From: Chloroflexia bacterium
GTDB taxonomy: Bacteria; Chloroflexota; Chloroflexia; DTKN01
Direction of reading: 5' to 3'
DNA: 64,000 nt
Assembly (NCBI GenBank): GCA_034436115.1
Contig: DAOTVY010000020.1
Coordinates: 604 to 64,603 of the forward strand
Shown: one piece after another, positions 6,495-45,165 of the stretch
How positions within the stretch are numbered: the first letter of the stretch is position 1
Layout: each line of letters begins with the position of its first letter
Notes under the pieces: generated by a model
Told to the model about the DNA's origin: nothing
Database searches by the model: none
The model's input: only the letters and a program-made list of their open reading frames with translations
Translations under genes and position numbers: made by a program

Positions 6495-7088
6495 TCACAA
6501 GGATACCAGCCGGCCGGCCGTAAGCAGGGTCTCGGCAATGCTATACATGTTCGATACCGTGCCCACGGCAACCTTTTCTTTCAGTTCGTAATACCCCAGA
6601 CAGGTCCCACAGGCCAGGATCCGGATACCCCGCCCGGCAAGCTCCTGCAAGTCCTCGAGGATCGGCGATCCCTCGACCACCAGCTTGACCCCGCTGTTGA
6701 GAAAAACGATCACGTCGGGGCGCGGTTCCACCTCTAGAAGGGTGTGGAAGAAGGAGCGGATCAGCACTGCTCCCAGTTCGGCGTGCTCACCTCGTCCCAT
6801 CGTTTCCGAGGGCACGAGCAACACCCGTGGGCCCACAGACTCCTCGGGAGCCACCTCACACGTCTCAGGCTGAACCTCGGACCGGCGCACGAGATGCACG
6901 TACACCCCTTCTTCCTTGCCGTCCAACCGCACAACCCATCCCGCCTTCTCCGCCATCCGACGGACGTTCTCTGCCGAATCCGGTCCGTCCACGATGACAA
7001 TCACCTCATCGGCCTTTTGCATCGCTTCCCTGGCCCGCAGAACGGGTTGAGGGCAAGGCAACCCCCGCGCATCGACGATGCGTGCCAT
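6495..7088 (-). CDS. yedF: Selenium metabolism protein YedF (TusA-like N-domain with CPxP motif plus DsrE-like C-domain)
   Basis: N-terminal GLPCPQPVL (TusA CPxP motif), C-terminal DsrE/DsrF-like domain, about 197 aa; directly downstream of selD. Confidence 0.75.
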   Translation of the reverse strand: MARIVDARGLPCPQPVLRAREAMQKADEVIVIVDGPDSAENVRRMAEKAGWVVRLDGKEEGVYVHLVRRSEVQPETCEVAPEESVGPRVLLVPSETMGRGEHAELGAVLIRSFFHTLLEVEPRPDVIVFLNSGVKLVVEGSPILEDLQELAGRGIRILACGTCLGYYELKEKVAVGTVSNMYSIAETLLTAGRLVSL

Positions 7089-7114: not shown

Positions 7115-8170
7115 TTACGGGACCACCTCAATCCCCGCTCCTGGAACGGCTTCTCCGATCACCCACCCCTCCTCCCCCAGGGCCCTCAGCTGGGCGAGGA
7201 GCGTGTCCGCGCGCTCCGGGGCGACGGCCAGGAGAAGCCCACCGGAGGTCTCCGGGGTAAAAAGAAGCATCCGCATCTCGTCGGGGATCGAGGGGGCAAA
7301 GCGCACACGGTCCGTGTACGCATCGCGATTGCGGCAGCTCCCGCCCGGGAACAGCGACTGCTCCGCATACTCCCTCGCTCCCGGCAGCAGAGGCAGCGCC
7401 TCGAGATGGAAACGGAGGGCGACTTGGCTCTGATCCGCCATCTCCAATCCGTGCCCCAGGAGGGAGAAGCCGGTAATGTCCGTGCAAGCGTGTACTTCCG
7501 CCGCCCGGGCCGCCCGCGCGGCTCCGCGGTTCAGGCGCGCCATCGAGCGCACAGCTGCGGCCACGTGCTCCGGCTCGGCAACTTCCCCCTTCAATGCCGT
7601 GGTGATCAGTCCCACCCCGAGCGGCTTGGTCAGTACCAAGCGATCTCCTGCGCGTGCCCCGCCCTTGGTCCAAATGCGCTCCGGATGCACCAGTCCCATC
7701 ACGGCGAGACCATATTTCGGTTCCGGGTCCTCGATCGTGTGGCCGCCCGCGAGCACCGCTCCGGCCTCCGCCACCTTGTCTGCGCCGCCCCGCAGGATCG
7801 CCTGAACGACCTCCAGTGGCAGGTCTCGTGGGAAGGCGCAGATGTTCAAAGCCAGCACGACCTCGCCCCCCATCGCATATACGTCGCTCATCGCGTTGGC
7901 TGCGGCAACGGCCCCAAAATCGTAGGGGTCGTCGACGATGGGCGTGAAGAAGTCGAGCGTCTGGATGACGGCAACTTCCTCAGTGACCTGGTAGACGGCA
8001 GCATCGTCCGTGCCCTCCAGACCAACCAGCAGCTGCGGGTATTCCTCCGCGTGAAAGCGCTCCCGGAGTGGGCGCAGCACCTGCGCCAGGGCCGCCGGGC
8101 CCATCTTGGCCGCTCAGCCAGCTGCCGAAGCCATGCTCGTGAGGCGAATGCGTTCCCGTTCTTCCTCCAT
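7115..8170 (-). CDS. selD: Selenide, water dikinase SelD, a selenoprotein (Sec encoded by TGA at 8114-8116; the ORF caller started at 8104)
   Basis: Extending the minus-strand frame upstream of 8104 gives MEEERERIRLTSMASAAG-U(TGA)-AAKMGPAALAQVL. This matches the SelD N-terminal motif (E. coli ...SHGAGCGCK...), with Sec at the Cys17 position and the Lys conserved. ATG at 8168-8170 is preceded by GAGGAG. Confidence 0.85.
8058..8113 (-). ncRNA. Candidate bacterial SECIS hairpin immediately 3' of the selD UGA
   Basis: mRNA after the UGA reads GCGGCCAAGAUGG GCCCGG CGGCCCU GGCGCAG GUG CUGCGCC CACU CCGGG. Two nested stems (GGCGCAG/CUGCGCC and CCCGG/CCGGG) begin about 11-13 nt downstream of the UGA. 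Confidence 0.45.
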
Positions 8171-8261
8171 CGCTGCTCCTCAGTCCTTGTGCATGGGGCG
8201 GGGGCACTCAAACCCCCGCCCCATTTTCGCACACGATGCGCGCCCAGGCAAGTTGGCCGCA

Positions 8262-8474
8262 TCATCGCGTCAGCCGAAGCCGATACGCGGACCCTTCGAA
8301 AATGACCTCCGCCTGCCACCCCTCCCGCTCCGCTACGCGCAGGCAGTTCTCGCGCGCGGTGTCGGTGTCCACCAGTACTTCCACCTGGCCGCTCCCGGCA
8401 CGCCTCAACGCCTGGCGCGTGAGCAGCGCCGGATGGGGGCAGGCAAGGCCCCGAGCATCTACGACCGTGGTCAT
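8262..8474 (-). CDS. TusA-like sulfur/selenium carrier protein
   Basis: 70 aa with GLACPHP (CPxP motif) near the N-terminus. Confidence 0.7.
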   Translation of the reverse strand: MTTVVDARGLACPHPALLTRQALRRAGSGQVEVLVDTDTARENCLRVAEREGWQAEVIFEGSAYRLRLTR

Positions 8475-9610: not shown

Positions 9611-9879
9611 AGCTACCTCCTTTTGTCCCGCAATCGATGCCCGAACAAGTCGATTCTTTCCCCGCTGCACCTCCTCTCTTCGCCCCCTGAGCGGCAAAAG
9701 GGCCACTGCCTCCCGACCCGGGACCGGGGTAGCCCACACGAAAGCCGGGGCGATCGAGCTTCGCTTGCAGGCTGCACCTCACCCGGTCGGGGGCGCAAGC
9801 AGACCCCGCTCCGCCCGGAGCCAACCGGCCCTTGGCGGAGAGGGTCATCGTTTCTCGTGAGGCCCGGTGCTGCGTCCGC

Positions 9880-11040
9880 TCATCCGCTTGTCCCGGAGGC
9901 CGCGAGCTCGGCAACTGCCTCAACCGCGGCCTCGATCTCTATACGCGTATGGAACGGCCCCAGGCTGAAGCGCACCGTGCCGGCCGGGAAGGTCCCCAGC
10001 GCCCGATGGGCGGCCGGCGCGCAATGCAGCCCGGGCCGGCACGCGATCCCGTAGCGTTCATCCAGCAGTTCCGCCACCTCCGAACACGGCCGGCCCACGA
10101 TGTTGAAGGAAACCACCGCCACCTGCTTTTCCGCCCGGCCGGTCCCATACACGACGACCCCCGGGATGCGCCCCAGGCCTTCCAACAGGAGCGCGGTCAA
10201 CGCCTCCTCGCGGGCGCGGATCTTCTCTACCCCCTCTTCCCGCAGGTAGCGGACCGCGGCCTGCAGTCCCGCCAAGCCGACGGCGTTCTGCGTCCCCGAT
10301 TCGAACCTGTCCGGAAGGAAATCCGGTTGCCTTTCCTCCTCCGAGCGGCTTCCCGTACCCCCGAACGTCAGGGGACGGAAACGGTCGAGCGGAACCCGCT
10401 CGCCAATGACCAGGCCCCCGGTGCCCGTGGGTCCCAGGAGCCCTTTGTGTCCAGCAAATGCCAGAAGATCGATCCCCAGCGCCTCTACCGCGATCGGGAT
10501 CGCTCCCGCTGTCTGAGCGGCGTCGACCAGTAGTAGCCGCCCTGCCTGCCGCACGATCTCGCCCACCTCGCCCACCGGCTGCAGGGTGCCGCAGACGTTG
10601 GACGCGTGGTTCAGGACGACCAGCACGGTCTCGGGGCGGATGGCGTCCGCAACTGCCGCTGGATCGAGTTCTCCCTGCGGGGATGCGGGCAAGACCGTGA
10701 GGCGTACACCGGTTGCTTCCAACGCACGCAGGGGGCGCATCACCGAGTTGTGTTGCATGGGCCCCACCACCACGTGATCTCCCGGGCGAAGCAACCCCTG
10801 CAACGCCAGGTTGAGGGCAAAGGTGGCACCAGGCGTGAGCACGACCCGCAAGGGGTCGCTTACGCCGAAGAGAGCCGCCAGCGCCTCGCGCGTCTGGTAG
10901 ACCACACGGCCGGCCTCTACAGACATCCGGTGTCCAGAACGGCCGGGGTTGGCACCGATATCTCTTAGGAAGGCGGCCATCGCTTCCAGTACCTGGGGCG
11001 GCTTGGGCCACGAAGTCGCGGCCTGATCCAGGTAGAGCAC
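9880..11040 (-). CDS. Class V aminotransferase-fold cysteine desulfurase / selenocysteine lyase (NifS/SufS/CsdA-like)
   Basis: 386 aa, aminotransferase class V features (MLYLDQAATSWPKP..., PLP Lys region ...AFAGHKGLLGPTGTGGL); first gene of the Se operon. Confidence 0.75.
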   Translation of the reverse strand: MLYLDQAATSWPKPPQVLEAMAAFLRDIGANPGRSGHRMSVEAGRVVYQTREALAALFGVSDPLRVVLTPGATFALNLALQGLLRPGDHVVVGPMQHNSVMRPLRALEATGVRLTVLPASPQGELDPAAVADAIRPETVLVVLNHASNVCGTLQPVGEVGEIVRQAGRLLLVDAAQTAGAIPIAVEALGIDLLAFAGHKGLLGPTGTGGLVIGERVPLDRFRPLTFGGTGSRSEEERQPDFLPDRFESGTQNAVGLAGLQAAVRYLREEGVEKIRAREEALTALLLEGLGRIPGVVVYGTGRAEKQVAVVSFNIVGRPCSEVAELLDERYGIACRPGLHCAPAAHRALGTFPAGTVRFSLGPFHTRIEIEAAVEAVAELAASGTSG

Positions 11041-11316
11041 CCGCTTCCTCCTTTCTCAACCATTTCACAAAAACAAGGCCGCCGGCAGGCTTCCTGCCGG
11101 CGGCCCGCTTCCGCGCATGGATGGCTCAGGGACCTGGGTCCCTCCCGGACTTGCGCACAGGAGGCCTGCACACCAAAAAGGCGGCTCCACTGGGGTGCCA
11201 CCCGGCACCCACGGGTCCGCCTCAAGTTCGCCGCTTCTCGCTATGCAGCCTGCGCATCGCGCTCTCCAACCTTGTTCGGTTTTACTTATTTTACGACCCG
11301 CAACGCGGGCTGTCAA
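11041..11316 (-). promoter_or_regulatory. Promoter (TTGACA-17-TAAAAT) plus ~230-nt structured leader ending in an intrinsic terminator directly before the csd SD. Candidate attenuator or riboswitch of unknown class for the Se operon.
   Basis: Minus strand: gtacTTGACAgcccgcgttgcgggtcgTAAAAT; then a leader containing a possible 11-codon uORF (AUG CGC AGG CUG CAU AGC GAG AAG CGG CGA ACU UGA) and the hairpin GGGUGCC-ggg-uGGCACCC; then the terminator GCCGCCGGCAGG-aagc-CUGCCGGCGGC + UUGUUUUUGUG only ~20 nt before AAGGAGG-GUG. Confidence 0.45.
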
Positions 11317-19474: not shown

Positions 19475-20593
19475 TTAGGAAGCAGGAATCCCGGCAGCGC
19501 TGGTCACCTTCCAGCGCAGGTAGGCTTCGATAAAGTCGTCCAGATCGCCGTCCAGCACGGCCTCGGTGTCGCTCGTTTCATAGCCGGTACGCAGGTCTTT
19601 CACCAGGCGATAGGGGTGAAGGACATAGGAACGGATCTGGTTGCCCCAGCCGGCGGAGACGTGTTCCCCCTTCAGACGGGCCCGTTCCTCCTCCTGCTTG
19701 CGCTTCTCCAGCTCGTAGAGGCGTGAGCGAAGCACCTTTAAGGCGATTTCCTTGTTCCGCAGCTGGGAACGCTCGTTTTGGCAGGAGACCACAATTCCCG
19801 TAGGGAGGTGCGTGATGCGCACCGCGCTGTCGGTCGTGTTCACGCTCTGGCCCCCGTGGCCGGTCGAGCGGAAGACTTCGATCCGTAGGTCCTCCGGATC
19901 GATCTCCACCTCGATGGAGTCGTCCAGGGCCGGAATCACCTCCACTAAGGCGAAGGAGGTGTGGCGCCGGTGCGCCGCGTCAAAGGGGGAAAGGCGCACC
20001 AGGCGATGCACGCCGGCCTCGGCACGCGCATAGCCATAGGCATACTCCCCGCGGATCTCGATCGTCGCCGTCTTGATCCCGGCCTCCTCTCCGGGGAGGA
20101 TCTCGAGGATGTCGGTTTCAAAACCCCGGCGCTCAGCCCAGCGCAGGTACATCCGCAGGAGCATCTCGGCCCAGTCCTGGGCCTCCGTGCCGCCCGCTCC
20201 GGCGTGGATGGAAAGGAGCGCATCGTGGTCGTCGTACTCGCCGTTCAGCATCAGGCGAAGCTCCGCACGCTCGAGCTCGGCCTCGAGCCGACGCGCCTCC
20301 TGCTCCACCTCGGCGATCACGGCGGCATCGTCCTCCTGACGGGCCAGATCGTACAGCGCTTGCAGCTCCTCGACCTGGTGGGAGAGGGTTTGCTGCCGCT
20401 CGATCTCCTCGCGCAGGCGGGTCAACCGGCGCATCGTCTCTTGTGCACGGATGGGATCGTCCCAGAATCCCGGTTGCAGCGTGCTCTCTTCCAGGCGCGC
20501 GGCCTCTTCCTGCTTGCGGGGCAGGTCAAAGGTGCCTCCCGAGGGCCTCCACACGGATGCGCAAGTCCTGCAAAAGGCTCGCCGTTTCCGTCA
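19475..20593 (-). CDS. prfB: Peptide chain release factor 2 with programmed +1 frameshift (frame 0: 20593..20528; after shift: 20526..19475)
   Basis: Minus strand: AGGAGG-ATG ACG GAA ... CUC GGG AGG CAC CUU UGA C (MTETASLLQDLRIRVEALGRHL*). The canonical CUU UGA C slip site has an SD-like GGGAGG 3 nt upstream, and the +1 frame continues DLPRKQEE... into the 359-aa RF2 body (SPF motif, GGQSVNTTDSAVRITHLPTG). Confidence 0.9.
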
Positions 20594-20615
20594 TCCGATC
20601 CTCCTGTATCCCACA

Positions 20616-21260
20616 CTACAAGTTGCGCAGCACGTAGGGGCTGGATTCCTCCAGCATCGCCAGGATGCGTGCGACCACCATCTCCACGGCGATGGTATTG
20701 AAACCGCCCTCCGGGATGATCACGTCGGCATAGCGTTTGCTCGGCTCGACGAACTCCAGGTGCATCGGGCGCACGGTCTCCAGGTACTGGCGGATCACCG
20801 ACTCCATGGTGCGCCCCCGCTCGGCAATGTCGCGCTGGAGGCGACGGATGAAGCGGATGTCGGCGTCGGTGTCCACAAAGATCTTGACGTCCATCATGTC
20901 CCGCAACGTCTTGTCCGCAAAGATCAGGATCCCCTCCACCAGGATCACGCGGTGCGGGTAGACCGTGCGTGTCTCCGGACGCCGGGTATGGGTGGTAAAG
21001 TCGTAGATCGGCACTTCCGCCGGCCGGCCAGCGCACAACTGACGCAGGTGTTGCACGAGGAGCTCGTTCTCCAATGCGTCGGGATGATCGAAATTCACCC
21101 GCGCCCGCTCTTCCAGCGGCAGGTGGGACAAGTCCCGGTAATAGGAATCGTGCTGGATATAGGCGATGCGGTCGCGACCGACGCGTTCCAGGATCGCCTG
21201 GGCGACGGTCGTCTTGCCGGAACCGGTACCACCAGCCACCCCAACGATAATCGGCTTCAC
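20616..21260 (-). CDS. udk: Uridine kinase
   Basis: P-loop VAGGTGSGKTT and uridine-kinase blocks (IIEGILIF, DTDADIRFIRRLQRD). Confidence 0.85.
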   Translation of the reverse strand: MKPIIVGVAGGTGSGKTTVAQAILERVGRDRIAYIQHDSYYRDLSHLPLEERARVNFDHPDALENELLVQHLRQLCAGRPAEVPIYDFTTHTRRPETRTVYPHRVILVEGILIFADKTLRDMMDVKIFVDTDADIRFIRRLQRDIAERGRTMESVIRQYLETVRPMHLEFVEPSKRYADVIIPEGGFNTIAVEMVVARILAMLEESSPYVLRNL

Positions 21261-21414: not shown

Positions 21415-22617
21415 ATGAGGAGCGAGGAGCTCATCCGCCTGGAGGAACAGTACGGCGCGCAGAATTACAAGCCGCTGGACGTCGTGATCGCGCGCGCACA
21501 AGGGGTGTGGATGTGGGACGTCGAAGGGAACCGCTACCTGGATTTCCTGAGCGCCTATTCGGCGGTGAACCAGGGCCACTGCCACCCACGCATCCTGCGC
21601 GCGCTGATCGAGCAGGCCGGCCGGGTCACCCTGACCTCGCGGGCGTTCCGCAACGACCAGCTCCCCTTACTGGAAAAGGAGCTGTGCGAACTTGCCGGCT
21701 ACGAGATGACCCTCCTGATGAACTCGGGAGCAGAAGCCGTGGAGACGGCGATCAAGGCGGCGCGCAAATGGGGATACACCGTCAAGGGGGTGGCCCGAGA
21801 CCGGGCAGAGATCCTCGTCTGCGCGGGGAACTTTCATGGGCGCACCACGACCATCGTGGGGTTTTCCACCGAACCTCAGTACCAGGACGGATTTGGTCCG
21901 TTCACCCCCGGTTTCCGCATCATCCCCTATGGCGACCCCCAGGCGTTGGAAGCGGCCATCACCCCGAACACGGTCGCCTTCCTGGTGGAGCCGATCCAGG
22001 GGGAAGGCGGCGTGATCGTCCCGCCGGCAGGATACCTGAAGGCGGTGCGTGAGATCTGCACGGCACACCACGTGCTTTGGATGGCCGACGAGATCCAGAC
22101 TGGGCTTGGGCGCACCGGGCGGCTGTTTGCCTGCGATTGGGAAAAAGTCCGCCCAGATGTCCTGATCATCGGCAAGGCGCTTTCCGGCGGCTTCTACCCG
22201 GTTTCCGCGGTGCTGGCCTCGCGGGAAGTGCTGGGCGTATTTCGTCCGGGCGACCACGGCTCCACCTTTGGGGGAAACCCGCTTGCGTGTGCCGTGGCGC
22301 GGGAGGCGCTGCGGGTGATCATCGAGGAAGACCTTCCGGCTCGGGCCGAGCAACTGGGCCGCTATTTCCTGGGACGGCTTTCGCGCATCGAAAGCGAGCA
22401 CATCCGGGAGGTACGCGGCCGGGGTCTCCTGGTCGGGGTAGAACTGAAGCCGGAGGCCGGCGGCGCCCGCCGCTTCTGCGAGATGCTCCTGGAAAAGGGT
22501 CTCCTTTGCAAGGAAACCCACCAACATGTGATCCGCTTTGCGCCTCCGCTCGTGATCAGCCAAGGAGAACTCGACTGGGCTTTGGAGCGGATCGAAGGCG
22601 TGCTCAGCCGGGCGTAA
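21415..22617 (+). CDS. rocD: Ornithine--oxo-acid aminotransferase
   Basis: Near end-to-end similarity to OAT/RocD ([42 protein letters not shown]); promoter TTGTCA-17-TATACT upstream. Confidence 0.85.
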
Positions 22618-22638
22618 CAGTACCGAAAGGGGAAGCAG

Positions 22639-23361
22639 ATGGGCCTCATCCGCATCGGTACCGCCGGATGGTCCATCCCGAAGGCGTATGCGGAAGCGTT
22701 CCCGGGCGAGGGGACACACCTGGAGCGCTATGCCCGGCGCCTGAACGCGACCGAGATCAACTCGTCTTTCTACCGCTCCCACCGGCCGGAAACCTACGCC
22801 CGGTGGGCAGAAGCCGTCCCTCCTGACTTTGCGTTCTCGGTCAAAGTGCCCCGAGAGATCACCCACCGGGCACGGCTCCGGGGATTCGAGGAAGCGCTGG
22901 CCGGTTTCCTCTACGAGGCATCGGCCTTGGGAGAGAAACTCGGGCCGCTCCTGGTCCAGCTTCCACCGAGCCTGGCCTTTGAGCCCGAGGTGGCAGCTGC
23001 CTTTTTTGCCTGGTTTCGAGCGCGCTTCGACAGGGGCATCGCCTGCGAGCCACGCCATCGGAGCTGGTTTTCTCCCGAAGCGGATGAGACGCTTTGGCGT
23101 TTCCGGGTGGCGCGGGTGGCGGCGGATCCGGCCCCCGAGGGTTGCTCGAGCGAGCCCGGAGGATGGCCTGGCCTGGTGTACTTCCGGCTGCACGGTTCAC
23201 CCCAGATCTATCGCTCCGCCTATGAACCCGCCTTCCTGGAGGAGCTGGCCGGCCGGCTGCACGCGGCATCGTCCGCCGGTGCTGAAGTCTGGTGCATCTT
23301 CGACAACACGGCCTCGGGAGCAGCCCTCGGCAACGCGGTGTTCCTACGGGAGCGTTGCTGA
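22639..23361 (+). CDS. DUF72-family protein
   Basis: GTAGWSIPKAY...YARRLNATEINSSFYR is the typical DUF72 N-terminus. Confidence 0.6.
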   Translation: MGLIRIGTAGWSIPKAYAEAFPGEGTHLERYARRLNATEINSSFYRSHRPETYARWAEAVPPDFAFSVKVPREITHRARLRGFEEALAGFLYEASALGEKLGPLLVQLPPSLAFEPEVAAAFFAWFRARFDRGIACEPRHRSWFSPEADETLWRFRVARVAADPAPEGCSSEPGGWPGLVYFRLHGSPQIYRSAYEPAFLEELAGRLHAASSAGAEVWCIFDNTASGAALGNAVFLRERC

Positions 23362-23456: not shown

Positions 23457-25328
23457 TTAGCGGACCAGTTCGGTCAACCCGAGCTCGGCGAGTTTTTCCG
23501 GCGTGGGGATGCCGTTCTTGTCCCAGCCGCGCTGCTCATAGTACATATCGAGCAGCTGCTGCACTGCCTCGAAGGGCGTAAGCTGCCCCTTGGTCGGCCC
23601 CCCCGTGGAGGGGTGTTTATAGAAACGCGGGGCGGGATAGTCCCAGGTGCGGCCAAAGCCCTCGACCTCGCGGATCCAGTACATACGGGTCAGGTTCCAG
23701 GTTCGCTCCGAGATCTTCAGGAGGTCTTCCCAGGAGCGTTCGATCCCGGTAACCGCGGCCATCATCGGCGCATACTGGGTCACGTCGATGCCCAGTTCGA
23801 CCCACTGCAACCGGCAGGCGCCCATCGAATCGAAGAGTGGCCGGATGTGCTGCAGGAGGATCACCCGGGCGACTTTCTCTGGAGCCACCCGGTCCCGGCC
23901 AACCTGCAGGTCGTACGTGATCGCCCAGGCGCGGTTGTGGTGGGCGCCGACGTCCGCGGTCATGTAGGCGAGCAGCATGGCCGTGGCGTTGTGGGTCTCG
24001 TAGCCGCTCTGCTCCATCCCCTTGACCTGCACCGCGAACTCCTCGCTCCCCTGGCCGATCCGCTGGGAGGCGACCTTCACTCCCTCGGCGAGCAGGTTAC
24101 CGAGCCCCTCACGGCGGGCGATCTTTTCCAGAAGAGCGAAGGCCGCCTGCGCGTTTCCGAAGCGCAGGTCCAGGCCACCGGTATCCTCCGGGGTGAGCAG
24201 GCCGCGCTCGTAGCACTCCATGGCGAAAGCAACGGCGTTGCCCGCGGAGATGCTGTCGATGCCGAGCTCGTCGCACAGGTAGTTCCCGTAGGCGACGTCC
24301 TCGATGTCCCCCAGGGCGCAGTTGGAGCCCACGAGGGCGATCGTCTCGTACTCCGGTCCCTCGACAAAGACGCCGTGCTTCTTCGTGTAGGAGTACTTGC
24401 CGCAGGGGGAAGGGCAAGCGAAGCACCCCTTGTCGGTGATCACGATGCGCTCGCGCATGACCTGGCCGTAGAGGTTCGGGCCCTGCTCAAAGGACCCTTG
24501 CTGGAAGTTGCGCGTCGGGAGCGCACCGACTTCGTCACACCAGGAGGTGACGATCGTGGTGCCATACCGCTGCCAGGGGCCGAGACCTTCGGCTTCCTTG
24601 CAGGCGCGGAACATCGCATGAGCCAGTTCCCAGAAGCGCTCGGGGTCGGCCACCGGGATCGTCTTGCTACCCCGCACCGCCACCGCCTTGACCTTCTTGG
24701 CCCCCATCACGGCGCCCACGCCCCCGCGACCGGCCTGGCGGCCAAAGTCGTGGGTGATGCAGGCATACTTGACCAGGTTCTCTCCCCCCGGGCCAATGGT
24801 CGCGATCTGGAACTCCTCGCCCAGTCGCTTTTTCAGGATTTCTTCGGTGGTGATGGAGCCTTTGCCCCAGAGGTCGGAGGCGTCCCGCAGCTCCACCCGG
24901 TCGTCATCGATGAAGAGGTAGACCGGCTTGGGCGAGATGCCCTCGAAGATGATCGCATCGTAGCCGGCGTACTTGATCTCCGCCGTCAGGTGGCCTCCGA
25001 CGCTCGCGCCGGCATACCCTCCGGTCAGCGGCGACTTGCAGGCCCAATCCATCTTCCCTGCGCCCGGGACGAGCAGCCCGGAGAGCGGCCCGGTCGAGGC
25101 AACGAGTTTGTTTTCCGGCCCCAGTGGATCAGCCCCCTTAGGGACCTCCGTCCAGAGGTAGTAGATGCCCAGGCCTCGGCCGCCGAGGAAATCGCGAGCC
25201 ACCTTCTCGTCCAGCGGCTCTTTTCGGATTTCACTTGTGGTCAGGTTCACCCGCAGGATCGTACCGGCATATCCGTTCATGGTCGCTCCTCCGTCTGATT
25301 CGTCCCTATTCTGCGATGGACAGGACAT
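23457..25328 (-). CDS. Tungsten-type aldehyde:ferredoxin oxidoreductase (AOR family)
   Basis: 623 aa; AOR N-terminal MNGYAGTILRVNLTT...FLGGRGLG and overall AOR-family architecture. Confidence 0.8.
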   Translation of the reverse strand: MSCPSQNRDESDGGATMNGYAGTILRVNLTTSEIRKEPLDEKVARDFLGGRGLGIYYLWTEVPKGADPLGPENKLVASTGPLSGLLVPGAGKMDWACKSPLTGGYAGASVGGHLTAEIKYAGYDAIIFEGISPKPVYLFIDDDRVELRDASDLWGKGSITTEEILKKRLGEEFQIATIGPGGENLVKYACITHDFGRQAGRGGVGAVMGAKKVKAVAVRGSKTIPVADPERFWELAHAMFRACKEAEGLGPWQRYGTTIVTSWCDEVGALPTRNFQQGSFEQGPNLYGQVMRERIVITDKGCFACPSPCGKYSYTKKHGVFVEGPEYETIALVGSNCALGDIEDVAYGNYLCDELGIDSISAGNAVAFAMECYERGLLTPEDTGGLDLRFGNAQAAFALLEKIARREGLGNLLAEGVKVASQRIGQGSEEFAVQVKGMEQSGYETHNATAMLLAYMTADVGAHHNRAWAITYDLQVGRDRVAPEKVARVILLQHIRPLFDSMGACRLQWVELGIDVTQYAPMMAAVTGIERSWEDLLKISERTWNLTRMYWIREVEGFGRTWDYPAPRFYKHPSTGGPTKGQLTPFEAVQQLLDMYYEQRGWDKNGIPTPEKLAELGLTELVR

Positions 25329-27073: not shown

Positions 27074-28108
27074 ATGAACGCCCGAAAGTTCGCTCTCTTG
27101 GCCTGCATCGGCGTGCTGCTGCCGCTGATCCTGTTGGCCTGCGGCCCGACACCGACCGCGGCCCCCGGTGGCGCCACCCCCGCAGCGCCGACCGGCCGGC
27201 TGTGTGAGGGGGTAAAGATCGTCTTCTTCCCCGGCGGCCCGCCCGGCTGACCGTTCGCCACCGTGGTATACAACGGCGCGGTCGCTGCCGCTTCAGACCT
27301 CGGTGCGAACGTAGAGTACGTCTTCTCGGACTGGGATCCAGAAAAGATGGTCCGCCAGTGCAAGGAGGCCATCGCCACCAACCCGGACGGGATCGCGATC
27401 ATGGGCCACCCCGGTGACGAAGCCCTCTCTGCCTGTGTCGATGAGGCCGAGAGCAAGGGGATCATCGTCACCAGCCAGAACACCACCCTGCCGAAACTGG
27501 AAGCCAAGTACAAGTCGAAGGGCTTTGGCTATGTGGGACAGGAGCTCTACCAGTCGGGTTACCTGCTGGGCCAGGAGGCCGTCAAGCGAGGGAACCTGAA
27601 GCCCGGCGACCGGGCGATGGTGTGGGGCCTTCTGTCTCAGCCCACGCGGGGCCTGCGCACCCAGGGAGTCATTGATGCCCTGAAGGAGGCCGGCCTGGTG
27701 GTCGACTATATCGAGATCGACCCGGCCACCAACGCGGACCCGACGAACGGTACTCCCGTCTTCACCGGGTACGTATCGGCCCATCCGGATGTCAAGGTCG
27801 TCTGCACGGATCACGGCGGGCTGACCTCTACCATGGAGACCTACCTCAAGGCGGCCGGCAAGGGGCCCGATGACATCTACGCCATCGGCTTCGACCTGTC
27901 CTCGGCCACCCTGGCGGCTATCCGCGGCGGCTGGACGGACCTTGTGCTCGACCAGCAGCCGTGGCTGCAGGGCTACCTGCCGATCGTGCAGATCTGCCTG
28001 ACCAAGAAGTACGGCTTCTCCGGGTTGCACATCGACACTGGCTCCGGCTTTGCCGATAAGAGCAACATCGAGATGCTCGCGCCGCTCGTGGAGAAGCAGA
28101 TCCGCTGA
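27074..28108 (+). pseudogene. Sugar ABC transporter substrate-binding lipoprotein interrupted by an in-frame TGA (27248-27250) between the lipoprotein signal peptide and the mature domain
   Basis: ATG at 27074 (SD GAGGAGG) encodes MNARKFALLACIGVLLPLILLACGP... (lipobox LLAC). The same frame continues after the TGA as PFATVVYNGAVAAAS... (ribose/galactose-type SBP fold). The stop falls at the position of the conserved x-PFF motif. Confidence 0.6.
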
Positions 28109-38689: not shown

Positions 38690-39778
38690 ATGGCCAGACG
38701 TGTCGCCTTCCCGCCGTTGGGCGTCCTGAGCCTGGTGGCAGAAAAGTATCTCCAGGTCCTCGGGACAGAAGTGGTTTCCACTCCCCCGGTGTCCCGGCGC
38801 ACCCTGGACATCGGAATCCAGCACACGCCCGAGATGCTCTGCATCCCGTGCAAGCTTCTGTTCGGGAGCTACCTCGAGGCTGCGGAACGCGGTGCGACCG
38901 AGCTGGTGATGCTCGGGGGTGCCGGCACCTGCCGCCTGGGCTACTCGGCGCTTCAACACGCCCGACAGCTGCGGGCACTTGGGTTCGACGTCCGGGTCCA
39001 CACCCTGGACCTCTACCACGTGCACCGGGATCTGCTCCGACTGACGCGTGCCTTCAGCGGGGGCCGGCCACTGCGCGAGCTGTTGACGCCTATCCGGTTC
39101 CTGTTGGGCCTGCTGGAACTGACCGACGCCATCGAAACGGAGACCCTCCGGCTGCGGCCCCGGGAATGTGTGCCCGGGGCGACGGATGCTGCCCGTGTCA
39201 GGGCGCTTGAGCAAGTCGCCCGGTTGCAGAACTACAGGGAATTGAAGGCGGAACAGGATGCGATCCTCGATCTCCTGCGCCGGGTAGAACACGAACCGGA
39301 CCGACCGGTGCTCCGGATCGGGCTGGTTGGAGATGTCTATACGATCCTCACCCCGTTCCTCAACCACAACCTGGAGCGGGAACTCGCCCGAATGAACGTA
39401 GAGGTGCGGCGGTGGTTCCACTATACCGGGCGTATCGTCCCGCCGCTGCCCGCCTGGTTGCGGCGAGACCGGAGAGCGCGGGCGCGGCTGGCCGGGAAGC
39501 GCTACCTGAAGCGGGATGTCGGCGGGTTCGCCCGTTCGGCGGTGGGGGAAGCAGCCCTTATGGCGCAAGAAGGGGAAGTCGACGGCTTGATCCACGTGGC
39601 GCCCTTCAACTGTACCCCGGAGCTGGTGGCCCAGAGCGCGCTGGTGGCGCTCCATCGCGACCGTGGCATGCCGGTGCTGAACCTGCTGTTCGACGAGCAG
39701 ACAGGCCGGGCAGGTGTATTGACCCGCCTGGAGGCGTTTGTGGACATGCTCTGGACAGCGCGTAGGGCGAGGGGGTGA
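38690..39778 (+). CDS. DUF2229-like protein (acyl-CoA dehydratase activase-associated family), paralog A
   Basis: 362 aa; shares conserved blocks with the downstream paralog (LDxGIQxTPExLCxPCKLLFG; GLVGDVYTILTPFLNHNLERELARMNVEV; GLIHVAPFNCTPE...RLEAFVDML). Confidence 0.55.
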   Translation: MARRVAFPPLGVLSLVAEKYLQVLGTEVVSTPPVSRRTLDIGIQHTPEMLCIPCKLLFGSYLEAAERGATELVMLGGAGTCRLGYSALQHARQLRALGFDVRVHTLDLYHVHRDLLRLTRAFSGGRPLRELLTPIRFLLGLLELTDAIETETLRLRPRECVPGATDAARVRALEQVARLQNYRELKAEQDAILDLLRRVEHEPDRPVLRIGLVGDVYTILTPFLNHNLERELARMNVEVRRWFHYTGRIVPPLPAWLRRDRRARARLAGKRYLKRDVGGFARSAVGEAALMAQEGEVDGLIHVAPFNCTPELVAQSALVALHRDRGMPVLNLLFDEQTGRAGVLTRLEAFVDMLWTARRARG

Positions 39779-39781
39779 ACC

Positions 39782-40735
39782 ATGCGCGTGGGTGTTCCTC
39801 GAGCGCTGGCCTTCTTCCGCTTCCACCCCGGGTGGGACGGCTTCCTGCGCTCCCTGGGGATCGAGGTGGTGGTCTCGCCGCCCAGCAACCGCTCTATCCT
39901 GGAAGCCGGGTTGCCCTACACGGTCCCGGAGGCCTGCCTCCCCCTCAAGCTCTTCTTCGGCCATGTGCGGGCACTGGTGGGAAAGGTGGACGCGCTCCTT
40001 GTCCCTTCCATCCAGCGCTTTGCCGCGGGTTCCACGAACTGCGCCAAACTGATCGGATTGCCGGACCTGCTGCAAGCCACGATGGAGGACTTGCCGCCGC
40101 TGATCGCCCCGGACATCGACCTGAGCGCGGGCTCTGCTGGCCTGTGGAAAGCGGCGTTCGAGGTGGGGAAGGTGTTGGGCCGCAATCCCATCCAGCTCCG
40201 CGAAGCGGCCCAGGCCGGGTGGGCCGCCTATCTGCGTGCCCGCGCGGCGATGCTCGAGGGCAGCCTGACCCCTGCGGCCTTTGACCAGCCCATCCGTGCG
40301 CCCTCGCCTCCCCCGGGCGGTCCTACCGTGGCTGTCGTAGGACACCCATACAACCTCTACGATCCCTTTGTCAACCACAACCTGCTGGCCCGTTTGACGC
40401 GACTGGGCGTGGATGTGCTGACCCCCGAACGGCTGGGCCCCTGGCCATCGGCCGAGTATTGGACCTTCGAGTACGAACTGGTCGGGGCCACCCGGTTGGC
40501 GATGGAGCGGGAACAGGTGGAAGGACTGATCGCCGTCGCTGCTTTCGGCTGCGGGCCCGACGGGGTGATCCTGGAGGAAGTGCGTTCCCTGGCGGGGCAG
40601 GCTGGCCTTCCGGCGATGGTGCTCACGGTCGACGAGCATAGCGGCGAGGCTGGCTGGGTCACGCGCGTCGAGGCCTTTGTGGATATGCTCCTTTGGCGCC
40701 GGCGAGGCGAGCATGTCCGGGCATCGGAGGGATGA
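39782..40735 (+). CDS. DUF2229-like protein, paralog B
   Basis: AVVGHPYNLYDPFVNHNLLARLTRLGVDVL; LIAVAAFGCGPDGV...RVEAFVDMLL; start 4 nt after the upstream stop. Confidence 0.55.
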   Translation: MRVGVPRALAFFRFHPGWDGFLRSLGIEVVVSPPSNRSILEAGLPYTVPEACLPLKLFFGHVRALVGKVDALLVPSIQRFAAGSTNCAKLIGLPDLLQATMEDLPPLIAPDIDLSAGSAGLWKAAFEVGKVLGRNPIQLREAAQAGWAAYLRARAAMLEGSLTPAAFDQPIRAPSPPPGGPTVAVVGHPYNLYDPFVNHNLLARLTRLGVDVLTPERLGPWPSAEYWTFEYELVGATRLAMEREQVEGLIAVAAFGCGPDGVILEEVRSLAGQAGLPAMVLTVDEHSGEAGWVTRVEAFVDMLLWRRRGEHVRASEG

Positions 40736-40738
40736 AGC

Positions 40739-41695
40739 GTGGGCAAAAAGATCTACCTGGGCATCGACGTAGGCTCGGTAACGACCAAGATCGTCGCTAT
40801 GGACGAGGCAGGAACTCTGGTGAGCTCGCTCTACCGGCGGACGGCCGGCCGCCCGATCGAGACCATCCAGGAGGGATTGCGTTGGCTGCAGGGGCACCTT
40901 CCGCCCCAGGTGGAAGTGGCCGGTGTGGGGACGACCGGAAGCGGCCGCCAGTTGTGCGGCGTGATCGTCGGCGCCGACGTCGTGAAGAACGAGATCACCG
41001 CCCATGCGGTGGCCGCCTTGCACTGTGTTCCCAACGTTCGCACGGTCATCGACATCGGGGGACAGGACTCCAAACTGATCGTGCTCGAGAACGGGGTCGT
41101 GGTCGATTTCGCGATGAACTCGGTCTGTGCCGCCGGCACCGGCTCCTTCCTGGAGCAACAGGCGAACCGGCTGGGCATCACGCTGCAGGAGCTTGGGCAG
41201 CGGGCCTTGCGCTCGCACCACCCGGTGCGGATCGCCGGGCGCTGCACGGTCTTTGCGGAATCGGACATGATCCACAAGCAGCAGATGGGCTTCCCTCTAG
41301 ATGACATCCTCTATGGGTTGTGCCAGGCCCTGGTGCGCAACTACCTGAACAACCTGGCCCTTGGCAAGACACTCCACCCACCGGTCGTGTTCCAGGGAGG
41401 AGTGGCTGCGAATGTCGGGGTGGTCCGCGCCTTTCAGGAAGCGCTGGGAACCGAGGTGATCGTACCCCAACACCACGAGGTCATGGGTGCAATCGGGGCC
41501 GCCCTGCTGGCACGGGAGTGGGTGGACGGCCGGCCTACCCGCTTTCGCGGGTTCGACGCAGCCTGGAGCGACTATCGCGCCTCTTCCTTCGAATGCCGTG
41601 CCTGCCCGAACCGTTGTGAGATCGTACAGATCCAGATGGGCGGGGAGATCGTTGCCCGCTGGGGCGGCCGCTGCGAGCGGTGGGACGTGAGCTGA
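40739..41695 (+). CDS. BadF/BadG/BcrA/BcrD (HgdC-like) ATPase, a CoA-substrate-specific enzyme activase homolog
   Basis: N-terminal YLGIDVGSVTTKIVAMDE (actin-fold ATPase), FAMNSVCAAGTGSFLE, C-terminal Cys motifs CRACPNRC. Confidence 0.7.
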   Translation: MGKKIYLGIDVGSVTTKIVAMDEAGTLVSSLYRRTAGRPIETIQEGLRWLQGHLPPQVEVAGVGTTGSGRQLCGVIVGADVVKNEITAHAVAALHCVPNVRTVIDIGGQDSKLIVLENGVVVDFAMNSVCAAGTGSFLEQQANRLGITLQELGQRALRSHHPVRIAGRCTVFAESDMIHKQQMGFPLDDILYGLCQALVRNYLNNLALGKTLHPPVVFQGGVAANVGVVRAFQEALGTEVIVPQHHEVMGAIGAALLAREWVDGRPTRFRGFDAAWSDYRASSFECRACPNRCEIVQIQMGGEIVARWGGRCERWDVS

Positions 41696-43848: not shown

Positions 43849-44931
43849 TCAATGGCGCGTGCGGGCGTACCAACGCAAGGCCAGACCTAGCAAGACGGCT
43901 ACACCGCCCCCGACCCATGCGGGCATCGCCGATCCTCGTTCGGGCAAGCCGGTCTTGGGAAGGAGTGCCGGCGCCGAAACGACCGTGCGGGCGAGCGGGA
44001 ACGGTCGCAACATGAGCGCGACAATCGCCTGATAGGTAGCCAGCGCGTTTTCACCCGGGACGGCCGCTTGCCACTGCAGGGCCCCGCTGGGCAATTGCAG
44101 GCTCAGGAGCGCGCTCAGCGGCGTCTTCCCCTGCCGGGTCCAGGCCGGCCCTTCGGGGTCCTCCCCGGCCGCGACCAGCGCCTGGACGACGTAGGCGGTG
44201 GAGTTGGCGTCGGTGTCCGTACCCCACGGGCTGGGCTTCTGATAGGGGAAGCCTCCGTCGTCGTTCTGCTGCGTATGGAGATAGGCGAGGGCGCGCTGGA
44301 TGGAGGCGTCCCCCGACGGCACGCCGGCCTCCACGAGCGCCTGGATGGCCAGCGCGGTGGAATTCGTGTCCGCGCTGCCAGGCGAAGCGTCCCCGCTCCA
44401 GGACCAGCCTCCCTCCGGGGTCTGCGCCTGGCGAAGCCAGACGATCGCCGCTTCGGGAATCGGCCGTCCTACGGACGCCAGCGCCAGCAGTGCGAAGGCG
44501 TGGCCGGCCAGATCGCTTCCGTAACGCCCGGTTGCCGGATCATAGGCCTGTTCCAGGGCAGCGATCAGATCTACTCCGCCAAACGCCCGTGGGTCCTTGC
44601 CGGCGCAGACCGCTGCCAGGATGGTCTTGCCCGCGCTGCCCGCGTTTTTGGCCATCTCGGACGCGTGTGCGCCGAGGAAGGAGATCGGGGACTGTCCATC
44701 CCGAAGGAATCCGTTCGGGTCGCCGCCTACAGCGCAAATCGCAAAGACGGCATCCGCCGTGGATCCGGCCCCGAATCCGGGGAAACTTCCGTCCGGGAGT
44801 TGCTGGGTTGCCACCCAGGCCAGGGCGCCCAGCGCCGCATCTCGGTAGGGGCCGGCCGCCCCTGCGATGCCCGCCGGGGCGATCGCGGCCACCAGGAGCA
44901 CCGCAACAAGGAGAACACGATGGGTGCGCAT
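43849..44931 (-). CDS. Secreted prenyltransferase/squalene-oxidase-repeat (alpha-alpha toroid) protein with C-terminal TM anchor; first gene downstream of the cobalamin riboswitch
   Basis: Signal peptide MRTHRVLLVAVLLVAAIAPAGIAG; repeated QxxDGG[WF] motifs (TQQLPDGSFPG, RQAQTPEGGWSW, HTQQNDDGGFPY); C-terminal hydrophobic helix. Start at the ATG 8 nt after AGGAGG (the ORF track over-extends to 45015). Confidence 0.65.
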   Translation of the reverse strand: MRTHRVLLVAVLLVAAIAPAGIAGAAGPYRDAALGALAWVATQQLPDGSFPGFGAGSTADAVFAICAVGGDPNGFLRDGQSPISFLGAHASEMAKNAGSAGKTILAAVCAGKDPRAFGGVDLIAALEQAYDPATGRYGSDLAGHAFALLALASVGRPIPEAAIVWLRQAQTPEGGWSWSGDASPGSADTNSTALAIQALVEAGVPSGDASIQRALAYLHTQQNDDGGFPYQKPSPWGTDTDANSTAYVVQALVAAGEDPEGPAWTRQGKTPLSALLSLQLPSGALQWQAAVPGENALATYQAIVALMLRPFPLARTVVSAPALLPKTGLPERGSAMPAWVGGGVAVLLGLALRWYARTRH

Positions 44932-44947
44932 GCGGGATCCTCCTGTT

Positions 44948-45165
44948 TGCGAAACAAAATAACCCCCTCCTTTCGGAGGGGGAAGGACAGCCAACCAGTT
45001 CTTCTGCTCTCTCACCCCCTTTCCGCGAAGGTGGAGAAGAGATCGGGCGAAGGTGGGCGACCTGGCTTGGACGGTAGCCTTACGGCCCCGCCCTTACAGT
45101 TGCGGGACAGCACCGGACTCGCACCGGTTTCCCCCTGGGTAGCCCTAGCATCCGGGCATCGGGCG
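44948..45165 (-). ncRNA. Cobalamin (AdoCbl) riboswitch with intrinsic-terminator expression platform
   Basis: Minus strand: ...CCCAGGGGGAAACCGGUGCGAGUCCGGUGCUGUCCCGCAACUGUAAGGGCGGGG...CCAAGCCAGGUCGCC.... Compared from memory with the E. coli btuB aptamer core (GGGAAUCCAGUGCGAAUCUGG...CGCAGCGGUAAGG / CAAGCCCGAAGACCUGCC), it carries the B12-box-like GCAACUGUAAGGG. It is followed by the terminator CCCCCUCCGAAAGGAGGGGG + UUAUUUUGUUU right before the SD. Confidence 0.8.

Follow-up and report, generated by a model that had tools for sequence, protein, structure and literature searches.

Among bacterial selenoprotein families FdhA and SelD rank as the two most widespread, and every selenoprotein-containing bacterium surveyed has one of them or both (PMC1794560); SelD is also the second largest prokaryotic selenoprotein family and carries its selenocysteine (Sec) in an N-terminal loop (PMC13188914). 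Here we describe a selD gene (selenophosphate synthetase) with an in-frame UGA, together with the selenium operon to which it belongs, in a stretch of 64,000 nucleotides (the window) from a Chloroflexia bacterium (GenBank assembly GCA_034436115.1, contig DAOTVY010000020.1, positions 604 to 64,603 of the forward strand). Our results very strongly suggest that this gene encodes a Sec-containing selenophosphate synthetase, with the UGA (8116-8114) at the position of Cys17 of the Escherichia coli enzyme, as judged from alignments, codon counts and the conservation of RNA structure. In the Sec-type SelD of Haemophilus influenzae and Aquifex aeolicus, which belong to the same family, the UGA likewise stands at the Cys17 position within a G-U-x-x-K loop, the selenocysteine insertion sequence (SECIS) likewise lies within the coding sequence just downstream, and the enzyme likewise needs its own product; we see no essential difference from them, apart from the two adjacent hairpins, and not one, that follow the UGA in the clade of the window. 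With E. coli SelD (3u0o) the window protein has Lys20 and the domain architecture in common, but E. coli has Cys (TGC) where the window has UGA. The gene is thus an ordinary Sec-type SelD, of a kind that is textbook knowledge (PMC1794560, PMC13188914), mis-called as a protein of 329 aa. Its value lies mainly in correct annotation, as this gene and essentially its entire clade (nearly all of the 120 nearest entries) stand in the databases without the catalytic loop, and its in-frame UGA would identify the uncultured lineage as one that uses selenocysteine. Of greater consequence and interest at this locus is a pair of leaders found in the same operon.

Reading frame, family and codon census of selD

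On the minus strand the letters around the start of selD read ...cTGAGGAGcagcgATGGAGGAAGAACGGGAACGCATTCGCCTCACGAGCATGGCTTCGGCAGCTGGCTGAGCGGCCAAGATGGGC..., with the ATG at 8170-8168 directly after cTGAGGAGcagcg, and an in-frame TGA at 8183-8181 (within cTGAGGAGcagcg) shuts the frame upstream, so that 8170 is the earliest possible start. Translation from this ATG gives MEEERERIRLTSMASAAG, then the TGA codon (8116-8114), then AAKMGPAALAQVL. A preliminary description of this DNA had reported the TGA at 8114-8116, the ATG at 8168-8170, the preceding GAGGAG, this translation, the inverted repeat GGCGCAG-GTG-CTGCGCC and the CCCGG/CCGGG arms around it, and each of them is present in the sequence. With the TGA replaced by C, the 351-residue product matches TIGR00476 at 398.3 bits (cutoff 125), with position 1 of the model falling on residue 9; SelD also scores 369.6 bits with NF002098 (cutoff 299), and the called gene is annotated with the AIRS and AIRS_C domains (PF00586 and PF02769). 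The alignment of the extended protein with E. coli SelD (3u0o) is gapless over residues 6-346 (E 2e-81) and puts the TGA codon on Cys17 and K22 on Lys20 (AAG-U-AAK versus GAG-C-GCK), which bears out the earlier placement of the TGA at Cys17 with the Lys conserved. In addition, the SelD structures 2yye/2zod have SSG-C-AAK-VGP opposite AAG-U-AAK-MGP of the window; 2yye is presumably the A. aeolicus SelD, natively Sec-type and crystallised as a Cys mutant. Cys17 and Lys20 of E. coli SelD are essential for catalysis.

The codon homologous to 8116-8114 was compared over 161 related loci, drawn from one scan of a genome collection and one of a metagenome collection (best relative at 62% and 72%, respectively) and from contigs encoding specific homologs, wherever the motif could be located. 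This codon is TGA in 110 of the 161 loci, TGC or TGT in 51, and TAA or TAG in none, and all 24 unique relatives with at least 55% identity are TGA-type; together with the alignment and the conserved upstream peptide, these counts strongly support the proposal of a selenoprotein whose UGA stands at the catalytic Sec/Cys position. The flanking motifs RLT...AG and AxK are conserved on both sides of the UGA. Moreover, 22 tRNA genes were detected in the selD flanks of the relatives (1.96 Mb), 10 of them for tRNA-Sec, which adjoins selD in 10 of 109 TGA-type relatives versus 0 of 51 Cys-type ones (p 0.019). The best-named homologs belong to Anaerolineae, Thermoflexales and Chloroflexota metagenome-assembled genomes (MAGs), and Chloroflexota have been reported to have the Sec-decoding trait (PMC5322559). 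Note that the true stop of selD (7115-7117) is TAA in the window and TGA in three strain variants (L083-L085), whose selD genes thus hold one recoded and one terminating UGA.

RNA structure after the UGA and competing explanations

TGA ends 36 of the 60 confidently called genes in the window and its surroundings, and it is otherwise the main stop codon in this sequence. The prfB gene for release factor 2 (RF2) contains GGGAGG-CAC-CUU-UGA-C, which we take to be the classic programmed +1 frameshift site of RF2, preceded by a 22-codon first frame, MTETASLLQDLRIRVEALGRHL, with which the region extends over 19475-20620. Such a site works only if RF2 reads UGA as a stop, so UGA is not reassigned, and since UGA is a normal stop elsewhere, the selD UGA requires a local recoding signal. 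RF2 competes with SelB at every Sec codon.

Two hairpins, A and B (Table 1), lie downstream of the selD UGA as candidates for this signal. Folding energy relative to shuffled sequences is uninformative at 65-80% GC, and the dinucleotide z-score is alike in Sec-type and Cys-type genes (p 0.12). The structure was assessed by recoding the 18 codons after the UGA or UGC synonymously with each gene's own codon usage, the Cys-type genes serving as control. In the region of hairpin A (+9..+30 after the UGA; the hairpin itself spans +12..+25 in the window), the Sec-type genes gave a median z of -1.69 (Wilcoxon p 1.5e-11) and the Cys-type genes +0.15, with a difference between the two types of p 9e-9. 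Hairpin B (+25..+47) is favoured only in the subclade with an AQVL peptide, where z ranges from -2 to -4.8 and which includes the window, its close relatives, Photobacterium and some Anaerolineae, Spirochaetaceae and Chitinivibrionales MAGs; it is not present in most Dehalococcoidia and Bacillota Sec-type genes. Its stem varies by compensatory changes (GCGCAG/CUGCGC, GCACAG/CUGUGC and GCACAA/UUGUGC), it is 87% paired in 24 relatives with both sides changed in 4 of 7 pairs, and RNAalifold recovers its core unaided. When helices A and B are considered together in the 24 relatives, a set defined by protein identity, 81% of the cells are paired versus 34-55% when the helices are slid, and both sides have changed in 8 of 12 pairs, values which 0 of 500 shuffles reach. 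Counting pairs in fixed columns across all phyla did not work for hairpin A, as codon choice shifts its helix by one register. Altogether, the recoding comparison indicates that RNA structure downstream of the UGA is selected in TGA-type genes only, the Cys-type selD genes, unlike the Sec-type ones, having no selected hairpin there.

Both hairpins also agree with the published constraints on the bacterial SECIS (PMC13188914, Fig. 2 legend), namely an upper stem of 4-16 bp with 3-9 nt in its apical loop, a distance of 16-37 nt from the UGA to the loop, a G in loop position 1 or 2 (usually G then G/U) and a minimum free energy (MFE) of -7.5 kcal/mol or lower. Within these constraints fall 88 of 103 Sec-type sequences and 15 of 50 Cys-type sequences, as do hairpin A (loop CGGC of 4 nt, stem of 5 bp, MFE -8.8 for the stem alone) and hairpin B (loop of 3 or 5 nt, GUG or GGUGC, stem of 7 or 6 bp, MFE -9.4 to -11.3). 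The SECIS drawn in the preliminary description, a nested hairpin with GGCGCAG-GUG-CUGCGCC inside CCCGG/CCGGG, holds in part: its inner hairpin, our hairpin B, is sound in this clade, but its outer stem is paired in just 11-39% of the Sec-type sequences, like in the Cys-type controls, and the family-wide hairpin A had been missed. Judging from spacing and loop, the SelB site would be either A, which is universal and has an E. coli-like spacing, or B, which has the more canonical GGU loop.

In the mechanism that we propose, translation would begin at ATG 8170 and reach the UGA eighteen codons later, where a SECIS hairpin within about 45 nt of the coding RNA that follows would recruit SelB carrying Sec-tRNA(Sec); Sec would then enter at the equivalent of E. 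coli Cys17 and translation would proceed to 7115. Selenophosphate synthesis would thereby depend on its own product, as long noted for Sec-type SelD. We infer that Sec is actually inserted and that SelB, SelA and tRNA-Sec are encoded in this genome, outside the window as the preliminary description had proposed; such machinery is supported indirectly by two further UGA-plus-SECIS-like elements of the operon and by the tRNA-Sec genes beside Sec-type, and not Cys-type, selD of relatives. Several results weigh against Sec decoding at this codon. The window and the 10 kb that follow it yielded no selA, selB or tRNA-Sec, and the window has no tRNA gene of any kind. Rfam gave no SECIS match in the window at gathering or permissive thresholds. 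The structural signal is weak in the window alone, with a recoding z of -1.5 (p 0.13-0.14) for hairpin A and of -2.3 (p about 0.05) for hairpin B, and the plain fold of 8120-8050 in the window alone is no better than its shuffles (z +0.34), so that of the fold check proposed in the preliminary description, energy alone is uninformative and the published constraints speak for a SECIS. Note that two ORFs of the size of selB and selA (23457-25328 and 21667-23193) were considered and rejected, as they encode respectively an aldehyde:ferredoxin oxidoreductase and a protein of no assigned family.

The alternative that survives best, although we consider it improbable, is that the UGA is decoded without Sec machinery, either by a reassignment in this lineage or by near-cognate read-through inserting Trp or Cys. 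It would account for the missing machinery in the window and the 10 kb past its end, and in a second gene of the window, that of a substrate-binding protein (27074-28108), a TGA likewise falls in frame at a Cys/Gly position. However, it conflicts with the use of TGA as stop in 36 of 60 confident genes and with the UGA-dependent +1 frameshift site of RF2 in the window, and it leaves without a role the RNA structure that is selected past the codon in TGA-type genes only and the tRNA-Sec genes that stand beside TGA-type selD in relatives.

Still less probable is that selD is truncated or a pseudogene, starting at ATG 8104 with a non-coding stretch upstream. This is how gene callers have read it, since they start selD at ATG 8104 and report 329 aa in all public assemblies found; this ATG is present and the ORF that starts from it is intact. 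Of the 120 closest database proteins (68-87% identity), nearly all have a length of 328-329 aa, gene callers having cut them at the same place. However, with both essential residues aligned upstream of 8104, a product from this start lacks the Sec/Cys as well as the Lys of the G-(C/U)-x-x-K loop. Changes in the 18 upstream codons are mostly synonymous, and the peptide that they encode is kept in relatives of several phyla. As an example, the extensions of the window and the related locus L173 differ by one I>V and six synonymous changes, and the orthologs with 69-89% identity keep the peptide M..E(E/R)(I/V)RLT(A/S)(M/L)xSAAG*AAKMGP (the asterisk being the TGA), each with its own ATG and ribosome-binding site (RBS); in L173-L176, L179 and L181, a purine-rich GGAGG- or GGTGA-like motif stands a few bases before the equivalent ATG. 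By this pattern of changes, the upstream peptide is under purifying selection. In contrast, the Met codon at 8104 is CGC (Arg) in L093, so this internal Met is not a conserved start, and the pattern that the preliminary description had set against its own proposal, a conserved start at ATG 8104 below an unconserved upstream stretch, is the reverse of what the orthologs have. Moreover, 110 loci with TGA and none with TAA or TAG would not be the pattern of a decaying gene.

Finally, a sequencing or assembly error for TGC, one base away from TGA, has a negligible probability, because the TGA is kept in five assemblies of the same organism (ENA, Logan and JGI, from different samples and pipelines) that differ elsewhere in the gene and in every ortholog with 55-89% identity; the conservation, the codon census and the five assemblies together effectively rule out this error as well as a decayed gene and 8104 as the conserved start.

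Two leaders with a terminal UGA in the selenium operon

The selD gene is the fourth of a minus-strand cluster ordered sclA-like, yedE, tusA, selD, yedF and DUF3343. Two leaders stand in this operon, leader 1 ahead of the sclA-like gene and leader 2 between it and yedE, each with a short upstream open reading frame (uORF) that ends in UGA and a hairpin at this UGA (Table 1). Both are kept in five species, namely the window, L173, L174, L179 and L181 (SelD 76-89% identical), of which L179 and L181 were added later as a test. The leaders span 11316-11041 and 9883-9611 in the window, 6794-7069 and 8227-8493 in L173, 6883-7124 and 8278-8550 in L174, 2860-3100 and 4252-4513 in L179, and 1450-1776 and 2948-3169 in L181. 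Across the five species the uORFs have 8-14 codons and basic C-termini, the stems carry compensatory changes, and the hairpin loop always lies 18 nt after the UGA. A structured spacer and then a terminator-like hairpin separate each leader hairpin from the next gene.

In leader 1, promoters equivalent to that of the window match at 11 of 12 positions in L173 and at 12 of 12 in L174, and are visible in L179 and L181, and the uORF equivalents of the five species are basic, 11-14 codons long and end in UGA. The hairpin of the window matches the covariance model at 48 bits and is followed by UUUUU (11179-11175), and both its outer and its inner stem show compensatory changes in L174, L179 and L181. 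The whole leader of 245 nt folds with a z of -4.49 and matches no Rfam family. The terminator-like hairpin T2 farther downstream is clear in the window and in L173, and its stem sequence is kept in L174, L179 and L181 but with weaker U-tracts. In leader 2, the ATGA overlap of the uORF with the sclA stop is also found in L173 and L179, and in L174 and L181 the uORF starts 2-4 nt past this stop. The hairpin matches the covariance model at 38 bits; its homologs, likewise with the loop 18 nt from the UGA, carry GGUC there in L173, L174 and L179 and GGA(G) in L181. Between the uORF of leader 2 and yedE, the hairpins have 4-U tracts only, and a terminator scanner calls none of them.

A covariance model built from six leader hairpins matched the two L179 copies (E 2e-5 and 2e-4), and the covariance model R1 gave no more leaders outside the five close species. 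A fixed descriptor (RBS, ORF of 7-16 codons, UGA and qualifying hairpin) found 12 matches in 3.67 Mb versus 2 in the reversed sequence, and 6 of the 12 fall in the 600 nt ahead of selenium genes, zones that together cover about 3.5% of the sequence. The loops GGGU and GGUU of the two window leaders and their spacing of 18 nt from the UGA are within the constraints on the bacterial SECIS. By the descriptor and by eye, variants were found in Dehalococcoidia (L022 2679-2975, L120 830-1395 and L131 1142-1580), in which a tRNA-Sec gene precedes, in this order, a short basic uORF with a UGA at its end (MFVRRFEK, M..IISRRKN and MIIRRRQT, respectively), a hairpin with a CGUGU loop 19-28 nt past the UGA, an intrinsic terminator, and then yedE or selD; they look like a distant variant of the same leader.

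Reading the uORFs as small selenoprotein genes was rejected, as neither the peptide after the UGA nor the position of the next stop is conserved between species. In leader 1, the read-through frames of four of the five species end shortly before the terminator stem, and that of L174 passes through this stem to the sclA start codon; a complementarity between the hairpin apex and the 5' arm of the terminator was noted by eye. Our tentative proposal, for which we see nearly as much chance of being right as of being wrong, is that the two leaders are selenocysteine-sensing attenuators controlling the selD operon. At the UGA of the uORF, Sec insertion by SelB with Sec-tRNA(Sec) versus termination by RF2 would set the distance that the ribosome covers in the leader and, through it, whether transcription or translation proceeds into sclA and into yedE-tusA-selD-yedF. 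The ends of the read-through frames hint that Sec insertion would switch the operon on, a direction that we infer. Whatever their role, the leaders are the second and third sites in this operon with a UGA and a SECIS-like hairpin, and they therefore give independent support for Sec decoding in this organism.

How bacteria sense their selenium status and regulate the genes for its uptake and activation has been described as unresolved (PMC5322559), and we found no description of a leader made of a uORF, its UGA and a SECIS in the literature searched. If our proposal is true, a leader-peptide attenuator that senses selenocysteine would be a direct read-out of selenium status, with Sec decoding itself as the sensor, and would thus provide a concrete mechanism and a compact selenium-responsive genetic switch.

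Neighbouring features and comparison with known systems

The coordinates of the selD gene, the leaders and other features are given in Table 1. In the operon, the sclA-like gene matches the SclA model NF040779 at 379 bits, under the cutoff of 525, and the ATG of the TusA-family gene overlaps the yedE stop. From the tusA stop to the ribosome-binding site of selD, the sequence includes a perfect 10-bp GC hairpin (8195-8222, GGGGCGGGGG-TTTGAGTG-CCCCCGCCCC); it has no U-tract on the coding strand and its sequence is not kept in L173. In L181 (3170-5950), genes of the HGD-D and BcrAD_BadFG families (2-hydroxyacyl-CoA dehydratase-like and activase) and a deaminase gene stand between the second leader and selD, and homologous gene types occur at 38690-41695 of the window (DUF2229/HGD-D, DUF2229 and BcrAD_BadFG); the HGD-D/BcrAD_BadFG gene set may be linked to selenium metabolism.

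Table 1. Positions of selD, its RNA elements, the leaders and other features in the window
Feature	Position	Strand	Details
selD, selenophosphate synthetase, proposed Sec at residue 19	7115..8170	minus	351 codons plus stop
Shine-Dalgarno AGGAG of selD	8176..8180	minus	5-nt spacer to ATG 8170
In-frame UGA, proposed Sec (U19), E. coli Cys17 position	8114..8116	minus	alignment and codon census
Hairpin A, GGGCC-CGGC-GGCCC	8089..8102	minus	starts 11 nt after UGA, loop 16 nt after; family-wide SECIS candidate
Hairpin B, GGCGCAG-GUG-CUGCGCC (or 6 bp, loop GGUGC)	8071..8087	minus	loop 32-33 nt after UGA; one clade
Sigma-70-like promoter TTGACA-17-TAAAAT, after ptsI end	11288..11316	minus	11/12 matches
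Leader 1 uORF, MRRLHSEKRRT then UGA (11224-11222)	11222..11257	minus	GGAGAG 5 nt before ATG
Leader 1 nested hairpin, outer GGCGG/CCGCC, inner GGGUGCC-GGGU-GGCACCC (11210-11193)	11180..11221	minus	directly after UGA; loop 18 nt after UGA
Terminator-like hairpin T2 (14 bp, 12 GC) and UUGUUUUUGUG	11076..11106	minus	36 nt before sclA start
Leader 2 uORF, MSGRSTGPHEKR then UGA (9847-9845)	9845..9883	minus	ATG overlaps sclA stop (ATGA)
Leader 2 hairpin, 45 nt, inner GGGCC-GGUU-GGCUC (9831-9818)	9802..9846	minus	begins inside UGA; loop 18 nt after UGA
sclA-like gene, cysteine desulfurase / selenocysteine lyase family, first operon gene	9880..11040	minus	TIGR01977 448 bits (cutoff 377)
yedE, putative selenium transporter, 379 aa	8471..9610	minus	TIGR04112 452 bits
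Small TusA-family gene, 70 aa, CPHP motif	8262..8474	minus	PF01206 E 3e-13
yedF, selenium metabolism protein	6495..7088	minus	TIGR03527 191 bits (cutoff 110)
DUF3343 / Se_S_carrier gene, 76 aa	6243..6473	minus	PF11823 E 3e-23
prfB (RF2)	19475-20554	minus	GGGAGG-CAC-CUU-UGA-C
Cobalamin riboswitch RF00174	45035-45185	minus	59.7 bits; upstream of gene 43849-45015

The substrate-binding protein mentioned above is a sugar-type lipoprotein of the Peripla_BP_4 family on the plus strand, neither SaoX nor SaoB, which is split by an in-frame TGA (27248-27250) in the motif FFPGGPPG-x-PF, where 7 homologs have Cys and 5 have Gly. A 58-nt hairpin with a GGUC loop 29 nt past this TGA has a z of -2.5 versus dinucleotide shuffles and is not beyond synonymous recodings (z -1.34 and +0.31). 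This TGA was set aside as an independent proof of Sec decoding, in view of the Cys and Gly homologs, the null result of the recoding and the TGC found in an 89% relative; it may represent a Sec codon, or else a nonsense mutation that has become fixed in this population. That relative (L178, about 70-80) has TGC there but a TGA exactly at the lipobox cysteine (LVVA-TGA-GPT), for which damage or an assembly error is likelier than recoding. A scan for coding signal across TGA codons based on GC3 was too noisy, as it did not list selD; one of its entries is the TGA of the substrate-binding protein. Beside this gene, at about 28.3-34.8 kb on the plus strand, are found ABC transporter genes, three genes of the URO-D family (methyltransferase-like) and a GHMP/galactokinase-type kinase gene, the set being under a LacI-family regulator. 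The gene at 43849-45015, downstream of the cobalamin riboswitch, adjoins a CobA/CobO/BtuR gene.

Compared with the bacterial SECIS as modelled in bSECISearch, whose prototype is that of E. coli fdhF, both selD hairpins of the window fit the constraints. The minimal SECIS of fdhF presumably starts 11 nt after the UGA, as hairpin A does; the window differs from fdhF by its two candidate hairpins in tandem, by the loop of A, which has no GU, and by the position of B, about 14 nt further from the UGA.

For the leaders, the closest analogue is the 5' untranslated region of E. coli selAB, where a SECIS-like element is bound by SelB and represses expression (PMC13449736). In both cases a SECIS-like hairpin stands in the 5' leader of a selenium gene, and the selAB element is a probable sensor of charged tRNA-Sec through SelB. 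Unlike the selAB element, however, the hairpin of our leaders follows, at decoding distance (loop +18 nt), the UGA that ends a uORF of 8-14 codons; it is followed by a terminator-like hairpin and does not abut a Shine-Dalgarno sequence, it occurs twice per operon, and it belongs to sclA, yedE and selD and not to selAB. With the trp, his and pyrBI attenuators, the leaders share a promoter, a short uORF that contains the codon for the amino acid under control, a structured leader and a candidate terminator ahead of the first gene. In contrast to attenuators of this type, their sensing codon would be a UGA with its SECIS, and not a run of sense codons.

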